From Tequatrovirus LF73P3, in sequence record OZ035756.1: DNA of 64,000 nucleotides. The stretch is one strand, 5' to 3'. How positions within the stretch are numbered: the stretch's first letter is position 1; each line of letters starts with the position of its first letter. Shown one piece after another: positions 11,940 to 44,863 of the stretch. Below the pieces are notes generated by a model. The model had not been told where the DNA came from and made no database searches. It was given only the letters and a program-made list of their open reading frames with translations. The position numbers and the translations under genes are program-made.

Positions 11940-11969
11940 ATTATACCACATCCTTGTGGTAAAGTAAAC
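11940..11969 (-). promoter_or_regulatory. Early promoter (GTTTAC, spacer CCACAAGGATGTGG, TGGTATAAT)
   Basis: minus-strand GTTTACtttaccacaaggatgtggTATAAT; -35 overlaps the gene 39 stop codon; near-identical copy at 55035..55064. Confidence 0.6.
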
Positions 11970-13789
11970 TACTGGCTCATCCATTCTTTACGAAGGTCAG
12001 CATTATCCCCCATGAGCATTTCAAAAAGCTCTTTCCAGTTCTCAGGAAGTTTAACAACATCATATACCGGATTTTGAATCATCTCACGATATTCAGATTT
12101 TTCCAAAGAGCCAAGTCCCTTAATATAACGGATGCTATGTTTAGGTAGAGCATCTTTGGCACTCTCATATTCAGCGACTGTATAAAACCATTCTTGTTTT
12201 TTACCGACCTGAGCGATGATTACGGGAGTTTTGACGAAGCGAATTCTTCCTTGTTCAAACAGTTCCGGCCAATTACTAAAAAATCCGAGCAGAGAAGGAT
12301 AAATGCTTCCTAGACCATCGTGGTCAGCATCAGTCATAATAGCAATATTATGATAATTCAAGTTTTCAGCTTTTTCACCAAGAACTAATCCAGTGATTGC
12401 GCAAATATCAAACAGTTCTTTGTTTTTAAGCATATCAGCATATGACATACCCCAACTGTTGAGAACTTTACCACGCAATGGATAACCACCGTGAAGTTCT
12501 TTATCACGAACATCAATAAGATATCCGATAGCAGAATCACCTTCAGTCAAGAAAAGAGTCGTGTCAGCATCTTTACCACAAAGATTCGCTTTAATATGTT
12601 TATGAACCTTAGCTTTAGAAGCCTTTTTAGCTGCTTTAGTTTCTGCTGCTTTTTCTGCCGCCAATTTACGAGCCAAGGCAGCTTCAATAATTGGCATTAA
12701 AATTGCTTCATTGTTTAAAATAGCGCGTGAAATCTTTTTAGCATCAAGCTGAATATGACTACGAATTTCACCAAATGGAGAAGTCAAACGCTCTTTAGTT
12801 TGAGAATCAAATCGCATGTTTTTCATATCACGAACAAACATAACGATAGTCAAGCATTCTTTAACACGTGCTTTAGTTACATCAATTTTGAACTTGCGTT
12901 TAATTTGTGGAATAAGGTCTTCACAAATATCATCCATAACGCAGTCAATGTGATGGCCGCCATTCTTAGTATGAATGTTATTGACATATGTTAATTGACG
13001 AAAACCATCTGGTGAACGACCGACTGCAATAGAACAGTTTTCCTGTTCTTGAACGATAGCATGCTCATCATATTGGCGTGCGTATTTCTTAAAATTACCC
13101 TGAACCTTTTTACCGTTAAAGGTAAATTGAATATCAGGATAAACTACTGCAAGTGTCTGGAGACGATCCAGTGTAATGTCAAGATAAACTTGAGATAGCT
13201 CATTAGTTTCAAATGACATAAAATCAGGAATGAAAGTAACACGAGTTCCTTTCCATTTTCCAGGAATAGTTTCCCATGATTTATTTTCCATGCCATTTGA
13301 ACAACGAACTACAATATTATTTTGACCGTCGCCAGTTTCACCAACAAACATTACAGAAAAAATGTTAGTTAAACTAGAACCAACACCGTTCATACCACCA
13401 GTGACGCGTTCTTTATCATCACCGAAGTTACCACCTGCTTTTGGAATAGTCCAGGCAGCAACAGGACCAGGAATTTCTTCGCCGGTAGGTGTTTTAACCA
13501 TCGCTTGTGGAATACCGCGACCGTTATCTTCAACTGTTACTTGATTGTTTTTGATAGTAACATTAATTTTATTTGCGAATTTAAACTTAGTACGAATACC
13601 TTCATCTACTGAGTTATCGATAATTTCATCAATAAGCTTAACAAGACCAGGTACATACTGAACACTTTCCCATTTACCAAACAGAAAGCGCTCATGCATT
13701 TCATTAGCGGAAGAGCCAATGTACATGCCGCTACGCTTTTTGATATGTTCAATATCGCTCAGAATTTTAATTTCATTCTTAATCATCAC
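11969..13789 (-). CDS. 39: DNA topoisomerase II large (ATPase) subunit, single fused gene 39 (covers the region split off as gene 60 in T4)
   Basis: 606 aa continuous ORF, GyrB-like; T4 gp39 is about 516 aa plus separate gp60; T2-type fused form is about 605 aa. Confidence 0.9.
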   Translation of the reverse strand: MMIKNEIKILSDIEHIKKRSGMYIGSSANEMHERFLFGKWESVQYVPGLVKLIDEIIDNSVDEGIRTKFKFANKINVTIKNNQVTVEDNGRGIPQAMVKTPTGEEIPGPVAAWTIPKAGGNFGDDKERVTGGMNGVGSSLTNIFSVMFVGETGDGQNNIVVRCSNGMENKSWETIPGKWKGTRVTFIPDFMSFETNELSQVYLDITLDRLQTLAVVYPDIQFTFNGKKVQGNFKKYARQYDEHAIVQEQENCSIAVGRSPDGFRQLTYVNNIHTKNGGHHIDCVMDDICEDLIPQIKRKFKIDVTKARVKECLTIVMFVRDMKNMRFDSQTKERLTSPFGEIRSHIQLDAKKISRAILNNEAILMPIIEAALARKLAAEKAAETKAAKKASKAKVHKHIKANLCGKDADTTLFLTEGDSAIGYLIDVRDKELHGGYPLRGKVLNSWGMSYADMLKNKELFDICAITGLVLGEKAENLNYHNIAIMTDADHDGLGSIYPSLLGFFSNWPELFEQGRIRFVKTPVIIAQVGKKQEWFYTVAEYESAKDALPKHSIRYIKGLGSLEKSEYREMIQNPVYDVVKLPENWKELFEMLMGDNADLRKEWMSQ

Positions 13790-24719: not shown

Positions 24720-24916
24720 TTTGAATGCACTATAATTAATTTTAAGGCTTCTTCATGCACCTTACCTAATTGTATATGTCCAGTTTTAATTGTGTAAGCT
24801 TTGTGGAGCTGATTAGATAAGAGCTTGTATGTGAGCTCCTTGTCATAATTTTTAAATAGCTGGTCAATACGTTTCTTGTGGGCTTTCTTAAGCTGGCGTT
24901 TATTTAAACGAGCCAT
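24716..24916 (-). CDS. hypothetical basic protein (66 aa)
   Basis: six-frame ORF. Confidence 0.4.
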   Translation of the reverse strand: MARLNKRQLKKAHKKRIDQLFKNYDKELTYKLLSNQLHKAYTIKTGHIQLGKVHEEALKLIIVHSK

Positions 24917-25434
24917 TAATAACCTCGGTCTTGACGAGCGAAGTTTTCAGCATTTTTCAGATAATAAAGTTTAAAGATTTCTTCAGCCGTAAGACCGAGG
25001 CCTTGGAACATGTTCAGAACGAAATGAAGAATATCAATCATTTCGAATTTAATTTCCAACTGGTCTTGTGGAGACAAATCAGTAATCAGAGTTTCACGTC
25101 GTTCACCATGTTGAGCTTTCCAAGGCTTCCATACAGCAGATGCATCTTTTTCACCATTGCTCATACCACCAAGAGAAGTCAGTAGTTCGCGGAATTCATC
25201 ATCAATATAATCTTTCTGATTACGCAGCCAATCAACAACTTCACCCGCAGTAGCCAAATCATCAGGATGACGGTTATATTCAGGTTTATCTTTAGCTAAA
25301 CGAACCTGTAGAGATTTCTGCATATCAAGCATAACTTGCAGAGGGTCTTTTTCATCACCGAGAATATCCCAGTATTCATTTTGAGCTTTATCAGCGCCTT
25401 CAATCAGTTGTGAACATTCGTTAAAGTATGCCAT
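24916..25434 (-). CDS. 56: gp56 dCTPase/dUTPase (MazG-like)
   Basis: 172 aa from ATG at 25434 (MAYFNECSQLIEGADKAQNEYWDIL...); track ORF is extended by 31 hydrophobic codons without SD. Confidence 0.8.
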   Translation of the reverse strand: MAYFNECSQLIEGADKAQNEYWDILGDEKDPLQVMLDMQKSLQVRLAKDKPEYNRHPDDLATAGEVVDWLRNQKDYIDDEFRELLTSLGGMSNGEKDASAVWKPWKAQHGERRETLITDLSPQDQLEIKFEMIDILHFVLNMFQGLGLTAEEIFKLYYLKNAENFARQDRGY

Positions 25435-25505
25435 TATTTTTCCTTTCAATTCATGGGTTAGTAGATTAATTATACAATAAATATATAAAGCAATAAGGAG
25501 GATAT

Positions 25506-25706
25506 ATGGTACAAAAATTAATGGCACTTGTTAATGCCATAAAAGGTAATAAAAAACGTATAGCTTTTACTATTTCTGCTATGGTAGGAATTTTACTCTG
25601 GAATTTTATTTTATCACCAATTGCTATTGCTCATGGTGTTAATATTCCAGTAATTACTCTTGATACATTCGTAGATTTAGCATTTGCTTTAGTTGGGTTA
25701 ATTTAA
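25506..25706 (+). CDS. plus-strand small membrane protein (66 aa, two predicted TM helices)
   Basis: ATG preceded by AAGGAGG SD; fills the 56-61 intergenic space; stop overlaps gene 61 stop. Confidence 0.5.
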   Translation: MVQKLMALVNAIKGNKKRIAFTISAMVGILLWNFILSPIAIAHGVNIPVITLDTFVDLAFALVGLI

Positions 25707-26731
25707 ATCTTAGCGTATTTAGATAGCCGCATTTTAGCCATCAACCCTTGGGCAATATTATTTTTCATATATTCCATAATTTGTTTAGGGGTTGCACCTT
25801 CCTTTCTAATCATATCATTAACATCTTTTGATTTCCAGGGAGATTTATCCCAAAACATAACCCTTTCTCCTGCATCAACTAATTTAGTCATTCGTTTAAT
25901 AGTGTCAGGGTGACGAGGTTCATTATCTAAAACCCACACACGTCTATCTTTAAATGGAACAATTTCTAGGTCTAATTGACCGCCCGTAATAGCTATACCA
26001 TTTTCAATAAAAAGTGAATCTATAGGTCCTTCTAGAACATATACATCACCATCTTTGACTCGTTCGACTCCATAGATTTTTGTTGCCTCAGGATAAGCTT
26101 TGATGGTGATATATTTTTGAGGAGCATCTTTCTTTAATGCACGTCCTTGAAAAGACTCGGCTTTTCCGTTAGCATTATAAATTGGAATAACAAGACGAGG
26201 CTCAGGTATTTCCTTTTTATATGTTCCTGGTGCTATACTATTAACTAATTTAGGCCATTCAGTTGTAAACCAAAGATATTTCCATTTATCCTTTGGAATA
26301 CAACGAGCTTTTACATATTTTATAATTGGATGGTCTTCCGCCAGTTTATCTAATCTAATGCATGACGGAAGAGATTTAATTATTTTCTTCTCAGGTTGTT
26401 TAGGAAGTTCTTTAGGTTTTTCTACTGGACGACTTTTACCTTTTTCCTTTCTTATTTCAAAGATATACTCACGATATAAATCAGGTTCAAACTCCTTTAA
26501 ATATATTCCGATTGGTGCATGATAGTTACAGTTATAACAATGAATATTTCCTTCATTATTATCTCCATAATACCATCCACGGGCTTTATTTTGGTCGGTT
26601 TTTGAATCTCCACAAACAGGACATCTAAACCGTAATTTAAAAGTTGAACTATTATTTACTTGTGTGAATTTAGGTAAATGAGCTAATGCACGGTATGCAA
26701 ACTCATTATCAATCCAAGGTATTGATGACAT
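25703..26731 (-). CDS. 61: gp61 DNA primase
   Basis: 342 aa, N-terminal zinc ribbon CPVCGDS...CYNC, TOPRIM-like core; same length as T4 gp61. Confidence 0.9.
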   Translation of the reverse strand: MSSIPWIDNEFAYRALAHLPKFTQVNNSSTFKLRFRCPVCGDSKTDQNKARGWYYGDNNEGNIHCYNCNYHAPIGIYLKEFEPDLYREYIFEIRKEKGKSRPVEKPKELPKQPEKKIIKSLPSCIRLDKLAEDHPIIKYVKARCIPKDKWKYLWFTTEWPKLVNSIAPGTYKKEIPEPRLVIPIYNANGKAESFQGRALKKDAPQKYITIKAYPEATKIYGVERVKDGDVYVLEGPIDSLFIENGIAITGGQLDLEIVPFKDRRVWVLDNEPRHPDTIKRMTKLVDAGERVMFWDKSPWKSKDVNDMIRKEGATPKQIMEYMKNNIAQGLMAKMRLSKYAKI

Positions 26732-29816: not shown

Positions 29817-30179
29817 TTAAAAGAATTTAAATTTTTTCTTTGACCTTTTATTAAATGCATCTTGTAATTGCATTGTAATACATTTTTCTACATGAGGAGC
29901 TAACTCAGCTTTTCTTTCTTGGTCAAGAACAGCAAAGTCCATTACGACTTTTCCATCAACCCAATCTAATTTTGTCACATACACAATGTGTGTAGAACCG
30001 TCTTCTAGTTTAATGACAATCTCCTGGATAACATTTTCCATGGCAGATTTAATTATCTTAAGAGATTCATTAAAAAGACGTTCTTTTCTTTCTTCTTCCC
30101 CCTCCGAAGAGGGGGATTCATCGATAATTTCTAGATCTAAATCTAAATCATCTTTATTCATTAAATTCTTCCATATCAC
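29817..30179 (-). CDS. 40: gp40-like protein (120 aa)
   Basis: position between 41 and uvsX; acidic N-terminus. Confidence 0.5.
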   Translation of the reverse strand: MIWKNLMNKDDLDLDLEIIDESPSSEGEEERKERLFNESLKIIKSAMENVIQEIVIKLEDGSTHIVYVTKLDWVDGKVVMDFAVLDQERKAELAPHVEKCITMQLQDAFNKRSKKKFKFF

Positions 30180-31335
30180 TTAACTGATCTAGGTCAGTTT
30201 CTAAATCAGCTGCTGATTTACTTTTACTTTCTGGAGATTTAAATTTTTCAACCTTTGAGTTAATCAATTCATCAACTTCAGCTTCAACAATTTCATTACT
30301 ATCAATAGCACCTAACTGATAAGCACGTTTAATAGCATCTCGGAATGGCTGATGCTTAAATAAAGGACCCCAGAATGTAGTGCAGTTGGTATCTTTTGCA
30401 CGCCAAGATTTTTCTTCTCGAATCATCTCGCCAGTTTCTTCGTCAAGAAATTCACGAGCATACCAGCCATTTTTAGGTTTTACCACAAATCCTAATTCTA
30501 GAGCCATATCTAACAATCCAGAATAAGGATCGATGCCACCGTCAAATTTAACATCAATAAAGAATTTACTTTTTTCTTTAACGGTACGAGATTTTTCTAC
30601 ATTTAGAACAAATTGATACCCCTGAAGATCAGAACCATCTTTAATCTGGCGCTTACCGATAATGAATACAGTATCAGCCGAATACATTACGCCTGTACCA
30701 CCTGTCATCACGGTTTTACTAAACATTTCAATTGTTTCAATTGTATGGTTAACCGCAACACATGGAATGTTTTTAATACTAAAATAAGGAGTAACAATAC
30801 GGAATAATGACTTCAGTGATTTAGCACGAGTCATATCTGCCACAGATTTTTCATTCAAGGCATCTTCCGTTTCTTTCTTAGAAGCCATATTACCGATTGA
30901 GTCGATGAATACAATAACTTTTTCACCGCGCTCAATAGCTTCAAGCTGATTCACCATATCAATTTTCAGCTGTTCAACTGACTGGATTGGTGTATGAATT
31001 ACTCGTTCCGGGTCAACTCCCATGGATCGCAAATAAGCTGGAGTAATACCAAATTCGCTATCATAGAATAGACAAACCGCGTCAGGATATTTGTTCAAAT
31101 ACGCCGCAACCATAGTCAAAGACATATTTGATTTAAAGTGTTTAGAAGGACCTGCAAAAATGGTTAAACCAGACTGCATACCACCATCAATCGCACCAGA
31201 AATAGCGATATTAAGCATTGGGATTTTTGTACGGATTACATCCTTTTCATTAAAGAATTTAGATGTAGTCAGTTCAGCAGTCATTTTAGAAGTGGAAGCT
31301 TTAATCAAACGGGATTTTAAATCTGCAATAGACAT
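30154..31335 (-). CDS. uvsX: UvsX recombinase (RecA/Rad51 family)
   Basis: 393 aa, near-identical to recalled T4 UvsX. Confidence 0.9.
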   Translation of the reverse strand: MSIADLKSRLIKASTSKMTAELTTSKFFNEKDVIRTKIPMLNIAISGAIDGGMQSGLTIFAGPSKHFKSNMSLTMVAAYLNKYPDAVCLFYDSEFGITPAYLRSMGVDPERVIHTPIQSVEQLKIDMVNQLEAIERGEKVIVFIDSIGNMASKKETEDALNEKSVADMTRAKSLKSLFRIVTPYFSIKNIPCVAVNHTIETIEMFSKTVMTGGTGVMYSADTVFIIGKRQIKDGSDLQGYQFVLNVEKSRTVKEKSKFFIDVKFDGGIDPYSGLLDMALELGFVVKPKNGWYAREFLDEETGEMIREEKSWRAKDTNCTTFWGPLFKHQPFRDAIKRAYQLGAIDSNEIVEAEVDELINSKVEKFKSPESKSKSAADLETDLDQLSDMEEFNE

Positions 31336-31412
31336 TCATTTTTTCCATAGGCAACATTATATTTTCCTCACTGGTTAAAGATAGAGTAATTATAACACAA
31401 TAAATTTAGGCA

Positions 31413-32261
31413 TTAATCAACTGCTATTGGATGAATAGCATTAAACTTATGAAATGCTTCTGATTTTTCTTTGCGCGAAACACACATGCGAAGAACCTTT
31501 AATGGCTCGTCTTCTTCACCCAACGATTTTCTCTTTTCGATATTCGATGTTTTCCAACGAGCTTGCTCTGGAAACTCTCTATTGATTTGCTCAAGAGCTC
31601 TATTATGTTTTGAATTACTACGAATTGAACTGCACCCGCCCGGAGCCTGTGCTTTTCCAGATACAACCAGATATTTGAACAAGGCCAAATGCGGATAACC
31701 TTGATTAATTAAATTGAGAAATGCATACATATCTTCGCATAAATCAATTTTTCCATACCCAATTTGTTCTGTTGTAAGTTTTCCAAGGTCATACCAAGTA
31801 TTCGTGAATCCATATGAATTTTCACGATAATTACCCCAAGATGAAGTAATTTTAAAAATTGGTAAACGAGCATGACCATGATAATACCCGCAATCCATGG
31901 CATCTTCAACGTATTGAATCAATTCATAGAACTGTTCACGGGTTAATTGATTAATTTTATCTACGCAGCGACGATCATCTTTCTTTCGCATTGAACTCAT
32001 ACGAATAGTAGTATCATCATCAATCATCCAAATTCGTTGACCTGCATACATTTCAGTAATTGCTTTGCGAGTGCCAGCAATTCCATTAACATCATCGGGA
32101 ATAGTTATAATTTTGGCTCTAGACCCGTAAGCATCATAATAAGCTTTTTCTTCATGTTTACGTACTACAATATGTGGTTCATAATCAGTCGGAAACATAT
32201 CAAGGGCAGAAACTGCCCCTACACGTTGATAGCTTGGAATTACGAATTGAATCATTTCCAC
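31413..32261 (-). CDS. GT-A-like glycosyltransferase with DxD motif at the beta-gt locus (candidate T2/T6-type beta-glucosyl-HMC-alpha-glucosyltransferase)
   Basis: 282 aa; IWMIDDDTTIRM motif; not similar to recalled T4 beta-gt (351 aa). Confidence 0.5.
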   Translation of the reverse strand: MEMIQFVIPSYQRVGAVSALDMFPTDYEPHIVVRKHEEKAYYDAYGSRAKIITIPDDVNGIAGTRKAITEMYAGQRIWMIDDDTTIRMSSMRKKDDRRCVDKINQLTREQFYELIQYVEDAMDCGYYHGHARLPIFKITSSWGNYRENSYGFTNTWYDLGKLTTEQIGYGKIDLCEDMYAFLNLINQGYPHLALFKYLVVSGKAQAPGGCSSIRSNSKHNRALEQINREFPEQARWKTSNIEKRKSLGEEDEPLKVLRMCVSRKEKSEAFHKFNAIHPIAVD

Positions 32262-32992
32262 TCACCATTATAATCTTTTTTCGCAATATGAGTTTCACCA
32301 GTTTTCCACCAATGGTCAACCAAATAAAAATGACGGGAATACACATGAAGGCTCCCGACATTCCATATAATGGAACCTGCTTTATACTGACGAGTTGAAT
32401 CACCTGCATTCAAGTCAGATACTAATTTATCTAGTACGTATTTTTGCCATGCATAATCATTACGGAATCCGAAGACCACGTCATTTGAACGCATGCTTAC
32501 TACTGCATTGACTTTCTTATCACGAATCAGGTATTGTACTGTATTCGTACACATGAAATCTGACATACCATCTTTATTGTAGTCAAATTGCATGGATGGA
32601 CGAGTATAAATCATGATACCGCGTCGAGAATCAGGATTTTGACCAAGTTCAGCTAAACACATATCATACTGGGCATAGTTATCTTCTGACCAGATGGCCC
32701 AACCATAATTCGAGTTAATTTCGCCTTTAGAAGATGCTACCTGTTGCCAAATCTTTGGTGTTTCACCCGGAATATCTTTAACAAACAAACTTTTAGATTT
32801 ATACCATTCAAGTTCACGCTGAATGTATTCATCATTAAGAGCGCCAAAAATAAAAGGTTCATCTGCTACAAATGATGCACCAATAATTTCAATAGTTTTA
32901 ACACCAGTTTTATCAATTACGAAATCTTTTTCCTTTAATGCAAGACCCAAATCAAGACGGATTTCTTCAACTGTCATATAATCGTTAATCAT
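32252..32992 (-). CDS. 42: gp42 dCMP hydroxymethylase
   Basis: 246 aa, thymidylate-synthase-like, near-identical to recalled T4 gp42. Confidence 0.9.
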   Translation of the reverse strand: MINDYMTVEEIRLDLGLALKEKDFVIDKTGVKTIEIIGASFVADEPFIFGALNDEYIQRELEWYKSKSLFVKDIPGETPKIWQQVASSKGEINSNYGWAIWSEDNYAQYDMCLAELGQNPDSRRGIMIYTRPSMQFDYNKDGMSDFMCTNTVQYLIRDKKVNAVVSMRSNDVVFGFRNDYAWQKYVLDKLVSDLNAGDSTRQYKAGSIIWNVGSLHVYSRHFYLVDHWWKTGETHIAKKDYNGEWK

Positions 32993-33145
32993 TTAAACCT
33001 CAATTGATGCATTCATATTTAACTTGTAACAGTAATAAACCCCAACCTATAATAAGTGTCGGAATCATAAGAGGAACTGTTACGCTATAGTATATACTTA
33101 TTATAATCATCAAGATTAAAAGCAATACTGCTAAAATTTTGCTTT

Positions 33146-33397
33146 TCATTCCTTCTCTCTGATGATAATTACTTGATTTTGCTGCACAGATTTTTTAGTT
33201 TCACCTGCAATTGACCAAATAAAGGTAATAAACCAACCAATAATTGACCAATTAAACAGTAAAGATGTGAAAAAGATTCCTACTGTCGATTTTGACCCAC
33301 GCATCAAGGCGATGAACCAAGGAAGCATGTATATAATAATAGCCAACACGCCTGAAACTAAAACCATAAAAATTGAACCTGCTACTAAAGTTTCCAT
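33146..33397 (-). CDS. imm: Imm immunity (superinfection exclusion) membrane protein
   Basis: 83 aa, two TM helices, METLVAGSIFMVLVSGVLAIIIYMLPWFIALMRG... Confidence 0.8.
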   Translation of the reverse strand: METLVAGSIFMVLVSGVLAIIIYMLPWFIALMRGSKSTVGIFFTSLLFNWSIIGWFITFIWSIAGETKKSVQQNQVIIIREKE

Positions 33398-33404
33398 GTT
33401 TTCC

Positions 33405-33785
33405 TCACTTAGTCAAATTTTTTACGCATGAATTATAAGAATTCACTACATACTCCATTGGAGCATTTTTACCAGTACGCCATTGGTAATTATTAGCCCA
33501 ATTAGCCCAAAGTTCGGCGCAGTAGTTTTCAATTTTTTCTTCGCGTGTAATTACATCCGAATTACGATATGCTTGGGCAGATTCATCTGGACGAATAGCT
33601 TCATCAAAATTCGCCTGCATTTGTTCTACTGTCTGTTTTGGAGCTTCTTTATAACACTTAACATTAGGATTATAAAATTTGCTTGAACAATTTACAATTT
33701 TTCCTGCATCGGACTGATTTATTACTGGTCCTTGAGCTACACATCCAGTAAGACCCAATGCAATAACCAAAATAGCAATTTTCAT
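33405..33785 (-). CDS. putative lipoprotein (126 aa), imm.1 position
   Basis: signal peptide with lipobox LTGC. Confidence 0.5.
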   Translation of the reverse strand: MKIAILVIALGLTGCVAQGPVINQSDAGKIVNCSSKFYNPNVKCYKEAPKQTVEQMQANFDEAIRPDESAQAYRNSDVITREEKIENYCAELWANWANNYQWRTGKNAPMEYVVNSYNSCVKNLTK

Positions 33786-33795
33786 AATAATTTCC

Positions 33796-34053
33796 TCAAA
33801 TACAAGTAGTAATTACTCCAGTAGTGCTTATACAGGTATTACCTAATTGAACACCAAGCGTTCCATTAGTATTCATATGAAGATTATCATCAATTTTTGT
33901 TGATACTTTACCATTCATGTGAATAACAGTATTAGATTCAATCACATTCTGAGTGTCATTTTCAATATCAATAAATGGAACAGATGCTAATGCAACTAGA
34001 ACAGCTGCTAATGCAACTAAACACGCTGCTAAACAACCATAAACAATTTTCAT
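33796..34053 (-). CDS. hypothetical secreted/membrane protein (85 aa; trimmed to cassette ATG)
   Basis: ATG at 34053 preceded by SD GGAG within the conserved cassette leader. Confidence 0.45.
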   Translation of the reverse strand: MKIVYGCLAACLVALAAVLVALASVPFIDIENDTQNVIESNTVIHMNGKVSTKIDDNLHMNTNGTLGVQLGNTCISTTGVITTCI

Positions 34054-34087
34054 TTCATTCTCCAAATCCGTATCAGTTGATAGTTGT

Positions 34088-34118
34088 ATAGTACCATGGA
34101 AGAACAGGGATGTAAACA
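34088..34118 (-). promoter_or_regulatory. Early promoter cassette (GTTTAC, TGGTACTAT)
   Basis: minus-strand GTTTACatccctgttcttccatggTACTATACaactatcaactgatacgg. Confidence 0.6.
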
Positions 34119-34195
34119 GTTTTGTGAAAAAATTTTTAATGAATTTACAGGACCTAGAATCATCTATTTTTCCTAAGTATAGATTTATATTACTT

Positions 34196-34221
34196 GTATG
34201 AAAAAGGGACCCGGAGGTCCC
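34196..34221 (-). terminator. Rho-independent terminator after gene 43 (GGGACC-UCCG-GGUCCC plus U-run)
   Basis: 6-bp GC stem with tetraloop followed by UUUUUCAU on minus strand. Confidence 0.7.
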
Positions 34222-34234
34222 TAGATTTATTCTA

Positions 34235-36931
34235 TCAGCCAAACAGGAAGTCTAACGAAGCTTTTTCCTCATAGTCCATACCTGCCGATTCACACATGCC
34301 CGCAAGCGGTTTAACAAACGATTTTTGGAACAAAGTTGAGTAGTCAATCCAAGACAGTACGTCAGAACGAATTTCTTTTGGAAGTTCTGTGCCTGATGGC
34401 CAAGCAATGCACTTGTCACCAAATGGATTTCCTTCACGTAATGGAAGAACCATTACCTTATTTCCATCCAAAATTGGAGCTACACCTAAACCGCTAACAG
34501 CTCGACGATAAGTTAGCACACCACGAATATGGAACGGACATTTAAATCCTGGCCAACCTTTATCATCATATTTCGCTATATCGTTCGCAGTTTTTACTTC
34601 AGCAATAACTTTATAGTCAAGTTGACGATATTCTTTCTCAAAGTTCTTGTAGTATTCTTGGACAGACTCTTCACCTTCCTGAAGAATACGACGAATACTT
34701 TCTTCGAGAGCTTCTTGTACTGCTTTTGGTGTTGAGCTCTGCTGAGTTTCCATACCCATAATTTTTAGATGCGGTTCGGCAAATCGCTTATCTTCCATAT
34801 CATAAACGTTCAGAGCATAACGTTTTTTCGCTTTCCAAAATCCACCAACACCCTTTGAACCAAGCGGAGGGCAAGAAATAGCTTCACGGTCCATATGCAT
34901 CAGATGCTCGCGGTTATTCATATAATCACATAACTCACGATATGCAACATCAATCATAGGTTCCATCTTTTTCTTACCGAACTGATTCATGAATTCAACT
35001 AAATCATTTTGTTCTTTAAAGCGGTCAAGACCTACTTTTTCAATTACTTTATCTACACAAACATATACCGAATCAGTATCACCTGCTGCGATGAAATCTT
35101 CACCATTAGTTCCACATACTTTATTCAGATATTCATTAATTTTGCGAGCAATCCATTGAATACCGACTTGACCGAAAATTGTGATAGCAGTAGCATTTCG
35201 CAAATCATAGTAGCGGAAATGAATATTACCAAGAGCACCATAAAGACTGTTAATAAGAATTTTACGGTTCAGCTGATTTGTGTTAGCAAGTGTAGCAGCT
35301 TTTTCGCATTCTTCGATCAGACTATTAAGTACAGATTCAGTGTAATTCGATAATTCGTTTAAGAAATCATCACTGAACTTAACATATCGTTCAACTTCTG
35401 GTTTAGTTGAACAAGACCCTGCACCTTTCATAATAATCTTTTTAATAGCTTCGGCATTCATTTCTTCCGCGAACATTTTCTTTTTCCAATCTTTACGCTG
35501 GAAAAATACTTTAGCGATTTCCTTTGGAATGATACCTTCTTGGTGCTTATCATACATCCATCCATTCGGAGAGCAAGAATATTCATCACTTGGCTTAGGA
35601 GCTGTTCCTGCGATATATTCATGAATTGGATGAACTTTAAACTGCCCACGAATAGTCTCAGGACTAATGTTAACCTGACGAATAATGCTAGGATACAGAG
35701 ACGTCAAGTCAAAACTCATAATGTATCGACGAGCAATCGGTTTAGGTTCAAACACAAATGCACCTGGAAAACTCTGTTTAACGTGCGAACCTTGTTGAGG
35801 AATAACCTTATGTTCACCTTTCAGTGAGTTAAAAATAATAGCATCCCAAGTTTTAATAGGACTCATTACACCAGAAAAAGGCATTTTAGCGTAATAAGAC
35901 ATACTTAAAACTAGATCGATAAACCCACGAATTTTATCAATTGCTTGAACTGATTCTACGTCAATGATGTTATAACTAATGTATCGTTGATGATTAGTCT
36001 CACGAAGTTTATTAATAGGACCATCGTACGGCAATTTACCTTTTTTGGTTTCATGTTGAGCAACTGATTCCAAAGAGAACGATGGCAAATTAGTAAATGC
36101 GAATTTCTTGTACAAATCTAAATAATCAAGAATAGATACGCCATCAATAGAATAAATTTCTTTACTACCGTACATATTTTGAATTAGTTTAGATTTTACT
36201 CGACCGATTGGAGAGAAGCGTTTCATACTACGTTCACCGAGAACCATTTTAACACGATTCATGATATACGGAACGTCAAATCCCTCAATATTCCAACCGG
36301 TAAAAATAGCAGGTCGTTTCTGTTCCCAGAGATTAATATATTCCATGAGCATATCACGCTCATTATCAAATGGCATATAAATTACTCGGTCAAGAATTTC
36401 TTGAGGAACTTCATCACCACCTTCACAGTCAAGCTTAGCAGCTAACTTTGCGTCCCATTTTGATACTGAACCGTACATTGAATTCAACAAATCAAAGACG
36501 TAAAAACGATCGTCAATTGAATCATAATGAGTGATAGCATCAATTTCATATTCTGCTTTCATTGGGTCAGGAAATTTATCACCAGTAACCTCAATGTCAC
36601 AGTTAGCTACACGAACAAATTTTCGGTCATAAACAATTTCTGAACCATATGTATCACTGATATAAGCGAGTTTAAAATCGTTCATACCGAGAGCTTCGAG
36701 ACCAATGTCTTCCATTCGTTTCATCCAGTCTCGTGCATCTTTCATTGATGGAAATTTTTGAGGAGCACAATTTTTACCATAAATGTCTTTGTATTTTGAC
36801 TCTTCCTTACAATGCCTAAACATAGTCGGAAGATATTCTACTTCACGGGTACGTTCCTTTCCGTTTTCATCAATATAACGCTCAACAATATTATTTCCGA
36901 CTGTTTCGATAGAGATATAAAATTCTTTCAT
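34235..36931 (-). CDS. 43: gp43 DNA polymerase (family B)
   Basis: 898 aa, exonuclease and polymerase motifs (DIE, YGDTDS), same length as T4 gp43. Confidence 0.95.
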   Translation of the reverse strand: MKEFYISIETVGNNIVERYIDENGKERTREVEYLPTMFRHCKEESKYKDIYGKNCAPQKFPSMKDARDWMKRMEDIGLEALGMNDFKLAYISDTYGSEIVYDRKFVRVANCDIEVTGDKFPDPMKAEYEIDAITHYDSIDDRFYVFDLLNSMYGSVSKWDAKLAAKLDCEGGDEVPQEILDRVIYMPFDNERDMLMEYINLWEQKRPAIFTGWNIEGFDVPYIMNRVKMVLGERSMKRFSPIGRVKSKLIQNMYGSKEIYSIDGVSILDYLDLYKKFAFTNLPSFSLESVAQHETKKGKLPYDGPINKLRETNHQRYISYNIIDVESVQAIDKIRGFIDLVLSMSYYAKMPFSGVMSPIKTWDAIIFNSLKGEHKVIPQQGSHVKQSFPGAFVFEPKPIARRYIMSFDLTSLYPSIIRQVNISPETIRGQFKVHPIHEYIAGTAPKPSDEYSCSPNGWMYDKHQEGIIPKEIAKVFFQRKDWKKKMFAEEMNAEAIKKIIMKGAGSCSTKPEVERYVKFSDDFLNELSNYTESVLNSLIEECEKAATLANTNQLNRKILINSLYGALGNIHFRYYDLRNATAITIFGQVGIQWIARKINEYLNKVCGTNGEDFIAAGDTDSVYVCVDKVIEKVGLDRFKEQNDLVEFMNQFGKKKMEPMIDVAYRELCDYMNNREHLMHMDREAISCPPLGSKGVGGFWKAKKRYALNVYDMEDKRFAEPHLKIMGMETQQSSTPKAVQEALEESIRRILQEGEESVQEYYKNFEKEYRQLDYKVIAEVKTANDIAKYDDKGWPGFKCPFHIRGVLTYRRAVSGLGVAPILDGNKVMVLPLREGNPFGDKCIAWPSGTELPKEIRSDVLSWIDYSTLFQKSFVKPLAGMCESAGMDYEEKASLDFLFG

Positions 36932-43660: not shown

Positions 43661-44863
43661 TTATTTTGTAATAATGTCAAACTGTTCTTTAAAACAGAAG
43701 CTTGAATCTTGATGCTGATACAAAAATTCATATGCTTTTTCTCGCTCACGGTCATAAAGAGCTTGGTCAGATGACAGTTCTTTAATACGTTCAAATGTTG
43801 ATTCCATATCATTTTCATCAAACCAAACGATACCGCTATCATGCGAAATTAGCGGAGTATTATCAACACGGAATTTTAAATTTTCGCCCGTAGATTTCCA
43901 AAATACTGGAATTGTTCCACATGCACCAAGCTCGAGATGAGTATATTCTAAAGAACGTTGTAGATATTTTTTATCTAATTTACTCAGCTGATAACCAAAT
44001 CCGGATTTACTCATGCGTTCAAGCATTTCGCTATTTACATAACGATCAAGAATTTGCGTTGGCAAATTAGGAGCAATTTTAATTTGGTCTACTTGATGAA
44101 GACGATAATACTCATATGGAATTCCTTTTTCTTTAATAGGAATGAACGCAGGAGAACGTTCCAGACCTTCCATAATAGTACTTAGCCCAGCAGGTTTAAG
44201 ATGTTTTTCGTGAAAATCAAACATCTGATAAAAACCTTTCCATGTAGTCGTACGACCAATCCAGCGGTTGATATTCATGTTAATTTCAGAAACATCTTTC
44301 CAGTAGGTTGATCGAACCTTCGCGATATCCATAGGAGGCTGAAAGTTGTATACGGTCGGTGCTTCTTCAATATCATCAAACAGAGAAACAGTTTCTGGAT
44401 ACCATTCTTTCATCAGAACTTTATTAAAATCACCATTATCAGAATGACTAAAAATAACATCAGCTCGACGAACAGTTTCTTCTAATCCCAAATTTCGACG
44501 CAAAGAAAGAGAAGAATGGTCATGTTGATAAACTACAACACGAACAGAAGGTTTAATGTTATCAATAATTTTTTTATAGTTATTAATAGGGTCTTCTTCA
44601 ACCGAAGTAGCAGGAACTGAATTGATAATTAGAATATCACAATCATTTACCAGCTTAAGTGTTTTATCGTATTCTTTTGCCAATAAAACCGGAATTGAAA
44701 ATGATTTATAATCATGTGCACAGTTACGAGTAAATGATTTATCTTTAGCATAAACCAAAGTTACTTCATGACCATTTTTAATAAACCAATCACGCTGCTC
44801 GAGAGAAAATTTAGTTACGCCGCAACCTTCAAGACCTCGAGCCATAAAAATGCATACTTTCAT
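43661..44863 (-). CDS. agt: alpha-glucosyltransferase
   Basis: 400 aa, sequence as recalled for T4 alpha-gt. Confidence 0.85.
   Translation of the reverse strand: MKVCIFMARGLEGCGVTKFSLEQRDWFIKNGHEVTLVYAKDKSFTRNCAHDYKSFSIPVLLAKEYDKTLKLVNDCDILIINSVPATSVEEDPINNYKKIIDNIKPSVRVVVYQHDHSSLSLRRNLGLEETVRRADVIFSHSDNGDFNKVLMKEWYPETVSLFDDIEEAPTVYNFQPPMDIAKVRSTYWKDVSEINMNINRWIGRTTTWKGFYQMFDFHEKHLKPAGLSTIMEGLERSPAFIPIKEKGIPYEYYRLHQVDQIKIAPNLPTQILDRYVNSEMLERMSKSGFGYQLSKLDKKYLQRSLEYTHLELGACGTIPVFWKSTGENLKFRVDNTPLISHDSGIVWFDENDMESTFERIKELSSDQALYDREREKAYEFLYQHQDSSFCFKEQFDIITK

Follow-up and report, generated by a model that had tools for sequence, protein, structure and literature searches.

A very probable T2/T6-type β-glucosyl-HMC-α-glucosyltransferase gene between uvsX and gene 42 of Tequatrovirus LF73P3

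The gene between uvsX and gene 42 in the DNA of Tequatrovirus LF73P3 (record OZ035756.1), of which we analysed a stretch of 64,000 nucleotides (hereafter the window), very probably encodes a β-glucosyl-HMC-α-glucosyltransferase of the T2/T6 type (βα-gt, also termed ggt or TAGT). The homology points to a DxD-bearing, inverting enzyme of the GT-A fold, which together with α-gt would make gentiobiosyl-hmC. Published work already covers the gene and its product, fold, distribution and role in defence evasion, and the finding is the correct annotation of a known gene. We describe here its identity, fold, conserved motifs and neighbours, as well as the absence of a β-gt from the window. The kind and extent of the sugar on hmC decide which attackers act on a T-even phage, among them type IV enzymes (GmrSD/BrxU type), glycosylases (Brig1) and CRISPR nucleases; the sugar also decides which laboratory enzymes cut the phage DNA. 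A gene set of α-gt plus βα-gt predicts T6-like and not T4-like behaviour, which is useful for annotation and for the choice of phages in therapy or engineering.

The coding sequence (31413..32255, minus strand; 280 aa plus a TAA stop) was assigned on the basis of PHROG 842, Pfam PF20691, the RefSeq annotation and its identity to the T2, T6 and KIT03 proteins. For T2 and T6, the gene between uvsX and gene 42 in their genome records served as reference and was aligned to that of the window. The encoded protein shares 98% identity with the T2 βα-gt over the full length of 280 aa, 97% with the T6 βα-gt, likewise over the full length, and 99% with the RefSeq protein of KIT03, which is named βα-gt there. 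A comparison with the T2/T6 enzymes had been proposed in the initial annotation and returned full-length matches to both. The T2/T6-type gentiobiosyl pattern, which that annotation had offered as an example, is supported at the sequence level by these identities, by the presence of α-gt and by the lack of resemblance to β-gt. The match to PHROG 842 'beta-glucosyl-HMC-alpha-glucosyltransferase' (E = 6e-89) covers residues 2-277 of the protein and positions 3-269 of 270 in the profile. The TET-associated glycosyltransferase (TAGT) family PF20691, whose annotation is precomputed for homologues of the window protein, was matched at profile positions 2-205 of 205 with 39 bits against a gathering cutoff of 27.5; given this modest score, the T-even enzymes are taken to be divergent members of the family. 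PF20691 enzymes have the GT-A fold and form a sister group to GT2. The window enzyme differs from them in that it adjoins no TET/JBP dioxygenase, as gp42 already supplies hmC at the nucleotide level.

The window gene and that of T2 differ synonymously at 40 codons and non-synonymously at 6, and by this ratio βα-gt is under purifying selection. A pseudogene or inactive gene was rejected, as the frame is intact and the family-invariant residues are all kept, in addition to the 40:6 ratio. Three residues of the window protein, K33, E68 and K92, are absent from the six close relatives compared, and none of them lies at a family-invariant position. With the T2/T6 enzymes the window protein shares its length, the uvsX/gene 42 position, the ATGA overlap with gene 42 and the partner α-gt, differing in 6-7 amino acids and in having Arg11 where T2 has His. 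The Durham phages Solly and CP have their genes from 56 to α-gt in the order seen in the window and likewise lack dam; the window enzyme differs by a few conservative substitutions (K33, E68, K92 and I101).

The open reading frame in the 64-kb window spans 31413..32261 (minus strand) and counts 282 aa from a GTG codon. Two codons downstream of the GTG lies an ATG (32255..32253), which forms an ATGA overlap with the TGA that ends gene 42 (32254..32252). The 843-nt, 280-aa coding sequence from this ATG is the one annotated in every annotated relative (RefSeq KIT03, T2, Geo, Solly and CP). In view of the overlap and this uniform annotation, the GTG at 32261 was rejected as the start, and the ATG at 32255 is taken as the likely one. 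Accordingly, the open reading frame of the initial annotation stands, but its protein of 282 aa is more plausibly one of 280 aa.

The location between uvsX and gene 42, also given in that annotation, was confirmed from both sides: the downstream neighbour uvsX (30154..31335) matches PHROG 97, and the upstream neighbour gene 42, coding for dCMP hydroxymethylase (32252..32992, minus strand), matches the T4 crystal structures PDB 1B49/1B5E at E = 7e-164 as well as PHROG 160. The same slot holds βα-gt in T2, T6, KIT03, Geo, Solly and CP. With a G+C content of ~0.36, the gene does not differ from its surroundings, and over the 24 kb around it the window shares 98.1% identity with Escherichia phage UGKSEcP2 and 96-97% with many other Tequatroviruses. 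In T4, the homing endonuclease gene segA lies between uvsX and β-gt; the window has no segA there. The spacer between βα-gt and uvsX (31336..31412, 77 bp) holds TGTTATAAT, an extended −10-like sequence. A promoter/terminator scan of 31000-34400 gave 17 promoter-like sites against 14.5 ± 3.3 expected, i.e. no enrichment.

The product of this gene is clearly distinct from T4 β-gt. BLASTP of the T4 enzyme (from NC_000866) against the window protein gave chance matches only (E > 3), and tblastn over the 64-kb window, out of a genome of ~167 kb, found no homologue of T4 β-gt (best E 0.12). In a PDB sequence search with βα-gt, no β-gt or α-gt chain appeared at E ≤ 10 (best E = 0.73), the PDB holding both T4 glucosyltransferases. 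An identity with T4 β-gt was discarded on these three results. The initial annotation, which had seen no resemblance to T4 β-gt, was right on this point, and the full-length alignment to T4 β-gt that would have spoken against its proposal was looked for and not found. T4 β-gt (PDB 1JG7) and the window enzyme have in common the chromosomal slot and, as predicted for the window enzyme, the UDP-glucose donor and a β linkage on phage hmC DNA; they differ in fold, GT-B versus GT-A (PMC13216743), and share no sequence similarity. The two-domain GT-B architecture of T4 β-gt was not found in the window protein. By analogy, their acceptors would also differ, bare hmC for T4 β-gt and α-glucosyl-hmC for βα-gt.

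Among sequence records, βα-gt is the commonest gene at the uvsX/gene 42 locus in Tequatrovirus, and T4 β-gt is a rarity. Compared as nucleotides, βα-gt occurs in 485 phage records, 474 of them full-length at ≥90% nucleotide identity and many of them so named. At the protein level, homologues of βα-gt/TAGT occur in 689 phage records (472 at ≥90% identity) and those of T4-type β-gt in 126, only 29 of which reach ≥90% identity. In a survey from 2026, α-GT and β-GT occurred together in only six phages, the vast majority having α-GT or β-GT plus TAGT (PMC13216743), and a syntenic swap of β-GT for TAGT has been described (PMC13390438). The initial annotation had presented the gene as a departure from T4; with TAGT in 689 records versus T4-type β-gt in 126, it is T4 that is the outlier (PMC13216743).

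Since no solved structure was matched meaningfully by sequence (best E = 0.73), the fold was modelled. A search of a large protein database for homologues gave 11 clusters only, so that the alignment of nine homologues, with 31-77% identity to the window protein, is shallow and the model only moderately confident. The AlphaFold2 model has a mean pLDDT of 72.5 and a pTM of 0.73, with low confidence in loops 131-140 and 193-210. It shows a GT-A fold, i.e. a single Rossmann-like nucleotide-diphospho-sugar transferase. The acidic DxD motif expected where the fourth β-strand ends is present as D79-D81, following strand 74-77. It lies within the motif IWMIDDDTTIRM at 31998..32033 (minus strand); the codons of DDD occupy 32013..32021 (minus strand), directly after the modelled β-strand IWMI (74-77), and D79, D80 and D81 are invariant in the nine homologues down to 31% identity. 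The GT-A-type DxD motif named in the initial annotation is thereby located and found to be invariant. DxD motifs are known to act in GT-A catalysis, and DDD 79-81 would by analogy bind the metal and UDP. At the N-terminus, IPSYQR (residues 6-11; 32223..32240, minus strand) lies at the end of β1 (strand 3-7 in the model), with I6, P7, S8, Y9 and R11 invariant, and would form part of the nucleotide-sugar pocket. Formation of a β linkage from UDP-α-glucose requires an inverting mechanism, and GT2 enzymes carry an 'ED' base motif, with an Asp/Glu at a helix start in the acceptor half. In the window protein, E174-D175 (31731..31736, minus strand) is placed by the model at the N-terminus of helix 174-184, and D175 is invariant; by analogy, the pair is a candidate for the base in an inverting GT-A mechanism, with D175 as the likely catalytic residue.

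The window encodes, along with βα-gt, the α-gt and the hmC pathway genes for gp42 and gp56. The DNA α-glucosyltransferase gene α-gt (43661..44863, minus strand; 400 aa) lies between genes 47 and 55 and matches T4 α-gt (PDB 1XV5) over its full length at E = 1e-255 and PHROG 2888 at E = 6e-221; it thus sits at its normal position, in agreement with the initial annotation. Gene 56, for the dCTPase/dUTPase (24916..25434, minus strand), matches PHROG 173 at E = 2e-46 and is given here in the 172-aa form annotated in the closest relative. We infer the reaction and the DNA chemistry of the window phage by analogy with the 97-99% identical enzymes of other phages. In this putative pathway, gp56 would clear dCTP so that only hm-dCTP goes in, and gp42 would make hm-dCMP, the precursor of hmC DNA; the two would together swap the dCTP pool for hm-dCTP, from which the polymerase would build hmC DNA. 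Subsequently, α-gt would attach glucose in α linkage to most hmC residues, and βα-gt, with UDP-glucose, would add a second glucose β-1,6 onto the first to yield gentiobiosyl-hmC. The phage DNA would then be expected to contain hmC, α-glucosyl-hmC and gentiobiosyl-hmC, with β-glucosyl-hmC absent. The second sugar would alter which host defences act on the DNA, for example by blocking Brig1 excision, as seen in vitro.

The β-1,6 transfer of glucose by the T6 enzyme is also known from classical biochemistry. The T2/T6 enzyme adds the second glucose, in β-1,6 linkage, to α-glucosyl-hmC to give gentiobiosyl-hmC (PMC6024577, PMC13216743). DNA of T6 Δba-gt (Δg-gt) has lost gentiobiosyl-hmC and kept α-glucosyl-hmC, and the deletion alters the sensitivity of T6 to the glycosylase Brig1 and to BapA (PMC11078745; bioRxiv 10.64898/2026.02.25.707755). 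Furthermore, HPLC/MS of ten environmental Tequatroviruses with α-GT and TAGT but no β-GT detected hmC, α-glucosyl-hmC and gentiobiosyl-hmC, and no β-glucosyl-hmC (PMC13390438). A further glycosyltransferase elsewhere in the ~167-kb genome, outside the 64-kb window, is possible; phages with all three GT types accounted for 1/753 of those surveyed (PMC13216743).

Two other assignments of the reaction were weighed. The enzyme might act directly on hmC as a primary glucosyltransferase that substitutes for T4 β-gt and leaves a monoglucosyl pattern. It does fill the chromosomal slot of T4 β-gt, and some phages have distant TAGT homologues without α-GT or β-GT (PMC13216743), so the TAGT family need not depend on a first sugar. 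However, T2, T6 and the measured Durham Tequatroviruses retain about 25-33% bare hmC despite expressing the enzyme (PMC11078745, PMC13390438), its deletion from T6 turns gentiobiosyl-hmC into α-glucosyl-hmC and not into hmC (PMC11078745, bioRxiv 10.64898/2026.02.25.707755), and the window protein is 97-99% identical to these T2, T6 and Durham enzymes, which makes a primary transferase highly improbable. It is also highly improbable that the enzyme transfers a different sugar, not glucose, or forms a linkage that is not β-1,6, giving a disaccharide not yet described on DNA. Donor and linkage are unreadable from sequence, and the TAGT proteins of Klebsiella, Enterobacter and Serratia phages, at 48-66% identity, are paired with β-gt, not α-gt, and must accept a different substrate; yet chemical analysis identified gentiobiosyl-hmC as the product of enzymes that share 97-99% identity with the window protein (PMC13390438), and the substitutions specific to the window fall outside the invariant positions. 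That the K33/E68/K92 allele, combined with a Solly/CP-type α-gt, uses a different donor or linkage, leaving DNA that is not gentiobiosyl-hmC, is similarly very unlikely.

Within the preferred reading of a gentiobiosyl-forming βα-gt, the extent of the modification is a separate question. The gentiobiosyl-hmC content is about 5% in T2 (PMC6024577, PMC11078745) and about 72% in T6. As the T2 and T6 enzymes are ~98% identical and the phages differ 14-fold in gentiobiosyl content, identity is a guide to the kind of modification, but not a safe one to its extent. The DNA of Solly and CP carries about 2/3 gentiobiosyl-hmC and about 1/3 hmC with a trace of α-glucosyl-hmC, and the Durham phages Geo, EL and BGP display an intermediate 1:2:2 pattern (PMC13390438). 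For βα-gt, the window protein shares 99% identity with Solly, 98% with CP and 97% with Geo; for α-gt, it shares 99% with both Solly and CP and only 91% with Geo and T6. In T2, T4 and Geo, dam is present at the position after gene 56, and it is absent from the window, T6, Solly and CP: at 24916..26731 (minus strand) of the window, gene 56 is followed by a small plus-strand open reading frame and gene 61, as in T6, Solly and CP, and tblastn with T2 Dam found no dam in the 64-kb window (best E 5.6). In the Durham data, lack of dam goes together with membership of the high-gentiobiosyl group. Residue 11 (window codon 32223..32225, minus strand) is His in both T2 records, AP018813 (L003:7283-8125 (-)) and MH751506 (L010:2286-3128 (-)), and Arg in the window, T6, KIT03, Geo, Solly and CP; Arg11 is also kept in all nine aligned family members, down to 31% identity.

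Given that both transferases are closest to those of Solly and CP, that dam is absent and that Arg11 is kept, all of which are correlative, we favour with modest confidence a T6-like ratio, in which most hmC would be gentiobiosylated and about one third would stay bare, over a T2-like one. A contribution as minor as in T2 (about 5% gentiobiosyl), with an intact gene and DNA that is essentially α-monoglucosylated, appears rather unlikely, though to be taken seriously: the T2 gene is 98% identical and yet gives only about 5% gentiobiosyl-hmC (PMC6024577, PMC11078745), and EL, BGP and Geo are intermediate at 1:2:2 (PMC13390438). Against it stand correlations, namely that the window keeps Arg11 where both T2 records have His, that its βα-gt lacks the Geo-specific changes, that both its transferases are closest to those of the high-gentiobiosyl phages Solly and CP, and that it has no dam, like T6 and the high-gentiobiosyl group. 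From the sequence comparison, R11H is a candidate cause of the low second-glucosylation of T2 (about 5%). If single-residue variation in βα-gt such as R11H does set the extent of double glucosylation, the defence-evasion phenotype of a Tequatrovirus would be readable from βα-gt alone.

The two T6 records differ from each other, as well as from the window, within βα-gt. AP018814 (L004:7135-7974 (-)) has an in-frame GAT deletion that reduces DDD to DD, whereas the window keeps the full DDD; in MH550421 (L005:7138-7980 (-)), codon 10 has changed from CAG to TAG and the annotated protein starts at Met20 (261 aa), whereas the window has no stop at codon 10. These differences are either lesions of laboratory stocks or sequencing errors, and they matter for the use of a 'wild-type T6' sequence as reference.

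Several further features of the window were observed. Gene 39, for the topoisomerase large subunit (11969..13789, minus strand), is a single open reading frame of about 605 aa, compared with gene 39 plus gene 60 in T4; the gene being unsplit, the translational-bypass arrangement of gene 60 is absent. Directly 3' of the stop of gene 43 (DNA polymerase) lies a terminator-like, G+C-rich hairpin, AGGGACCTCCGGGTCCCT, followed by a T run (34205..34222, minus strand). A 148-aa open reading frame with a TTG start (33796..34242) spans this hairpin and is probably an over-call of the ~78-aa open reading frame annotated in relatives. Scans of the 64-kb window for tRNA genes and Rfam families found nothing.

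Other phages show different arrangements of these transferase genes. In the Escherichia Tequatroviruses G3F6, G3G6, PM123 and G2540 (MZ234034, MZ234039, MZ234043 and MK327936), the β-gt homologue is only 55% identical to that of T4 and adjoins a gene annotated 'glucosyl transferase', which the window does not have; these four phages may have three types of glucosyltransferase. In phages of Enterobacter, Citrobacter, Salmonella and Serratia (e.g. NC_055739 23578-25478), a TAGT homologue with 48-66% identity to the window protein lies directly beside a β-gt homologue with about 49-53% identity to T4 β-gt. The pairing in these four phage groups implies that the second sugar is placed onto β-glucosyl-hmC and not onto α-glucosyl-hmC.
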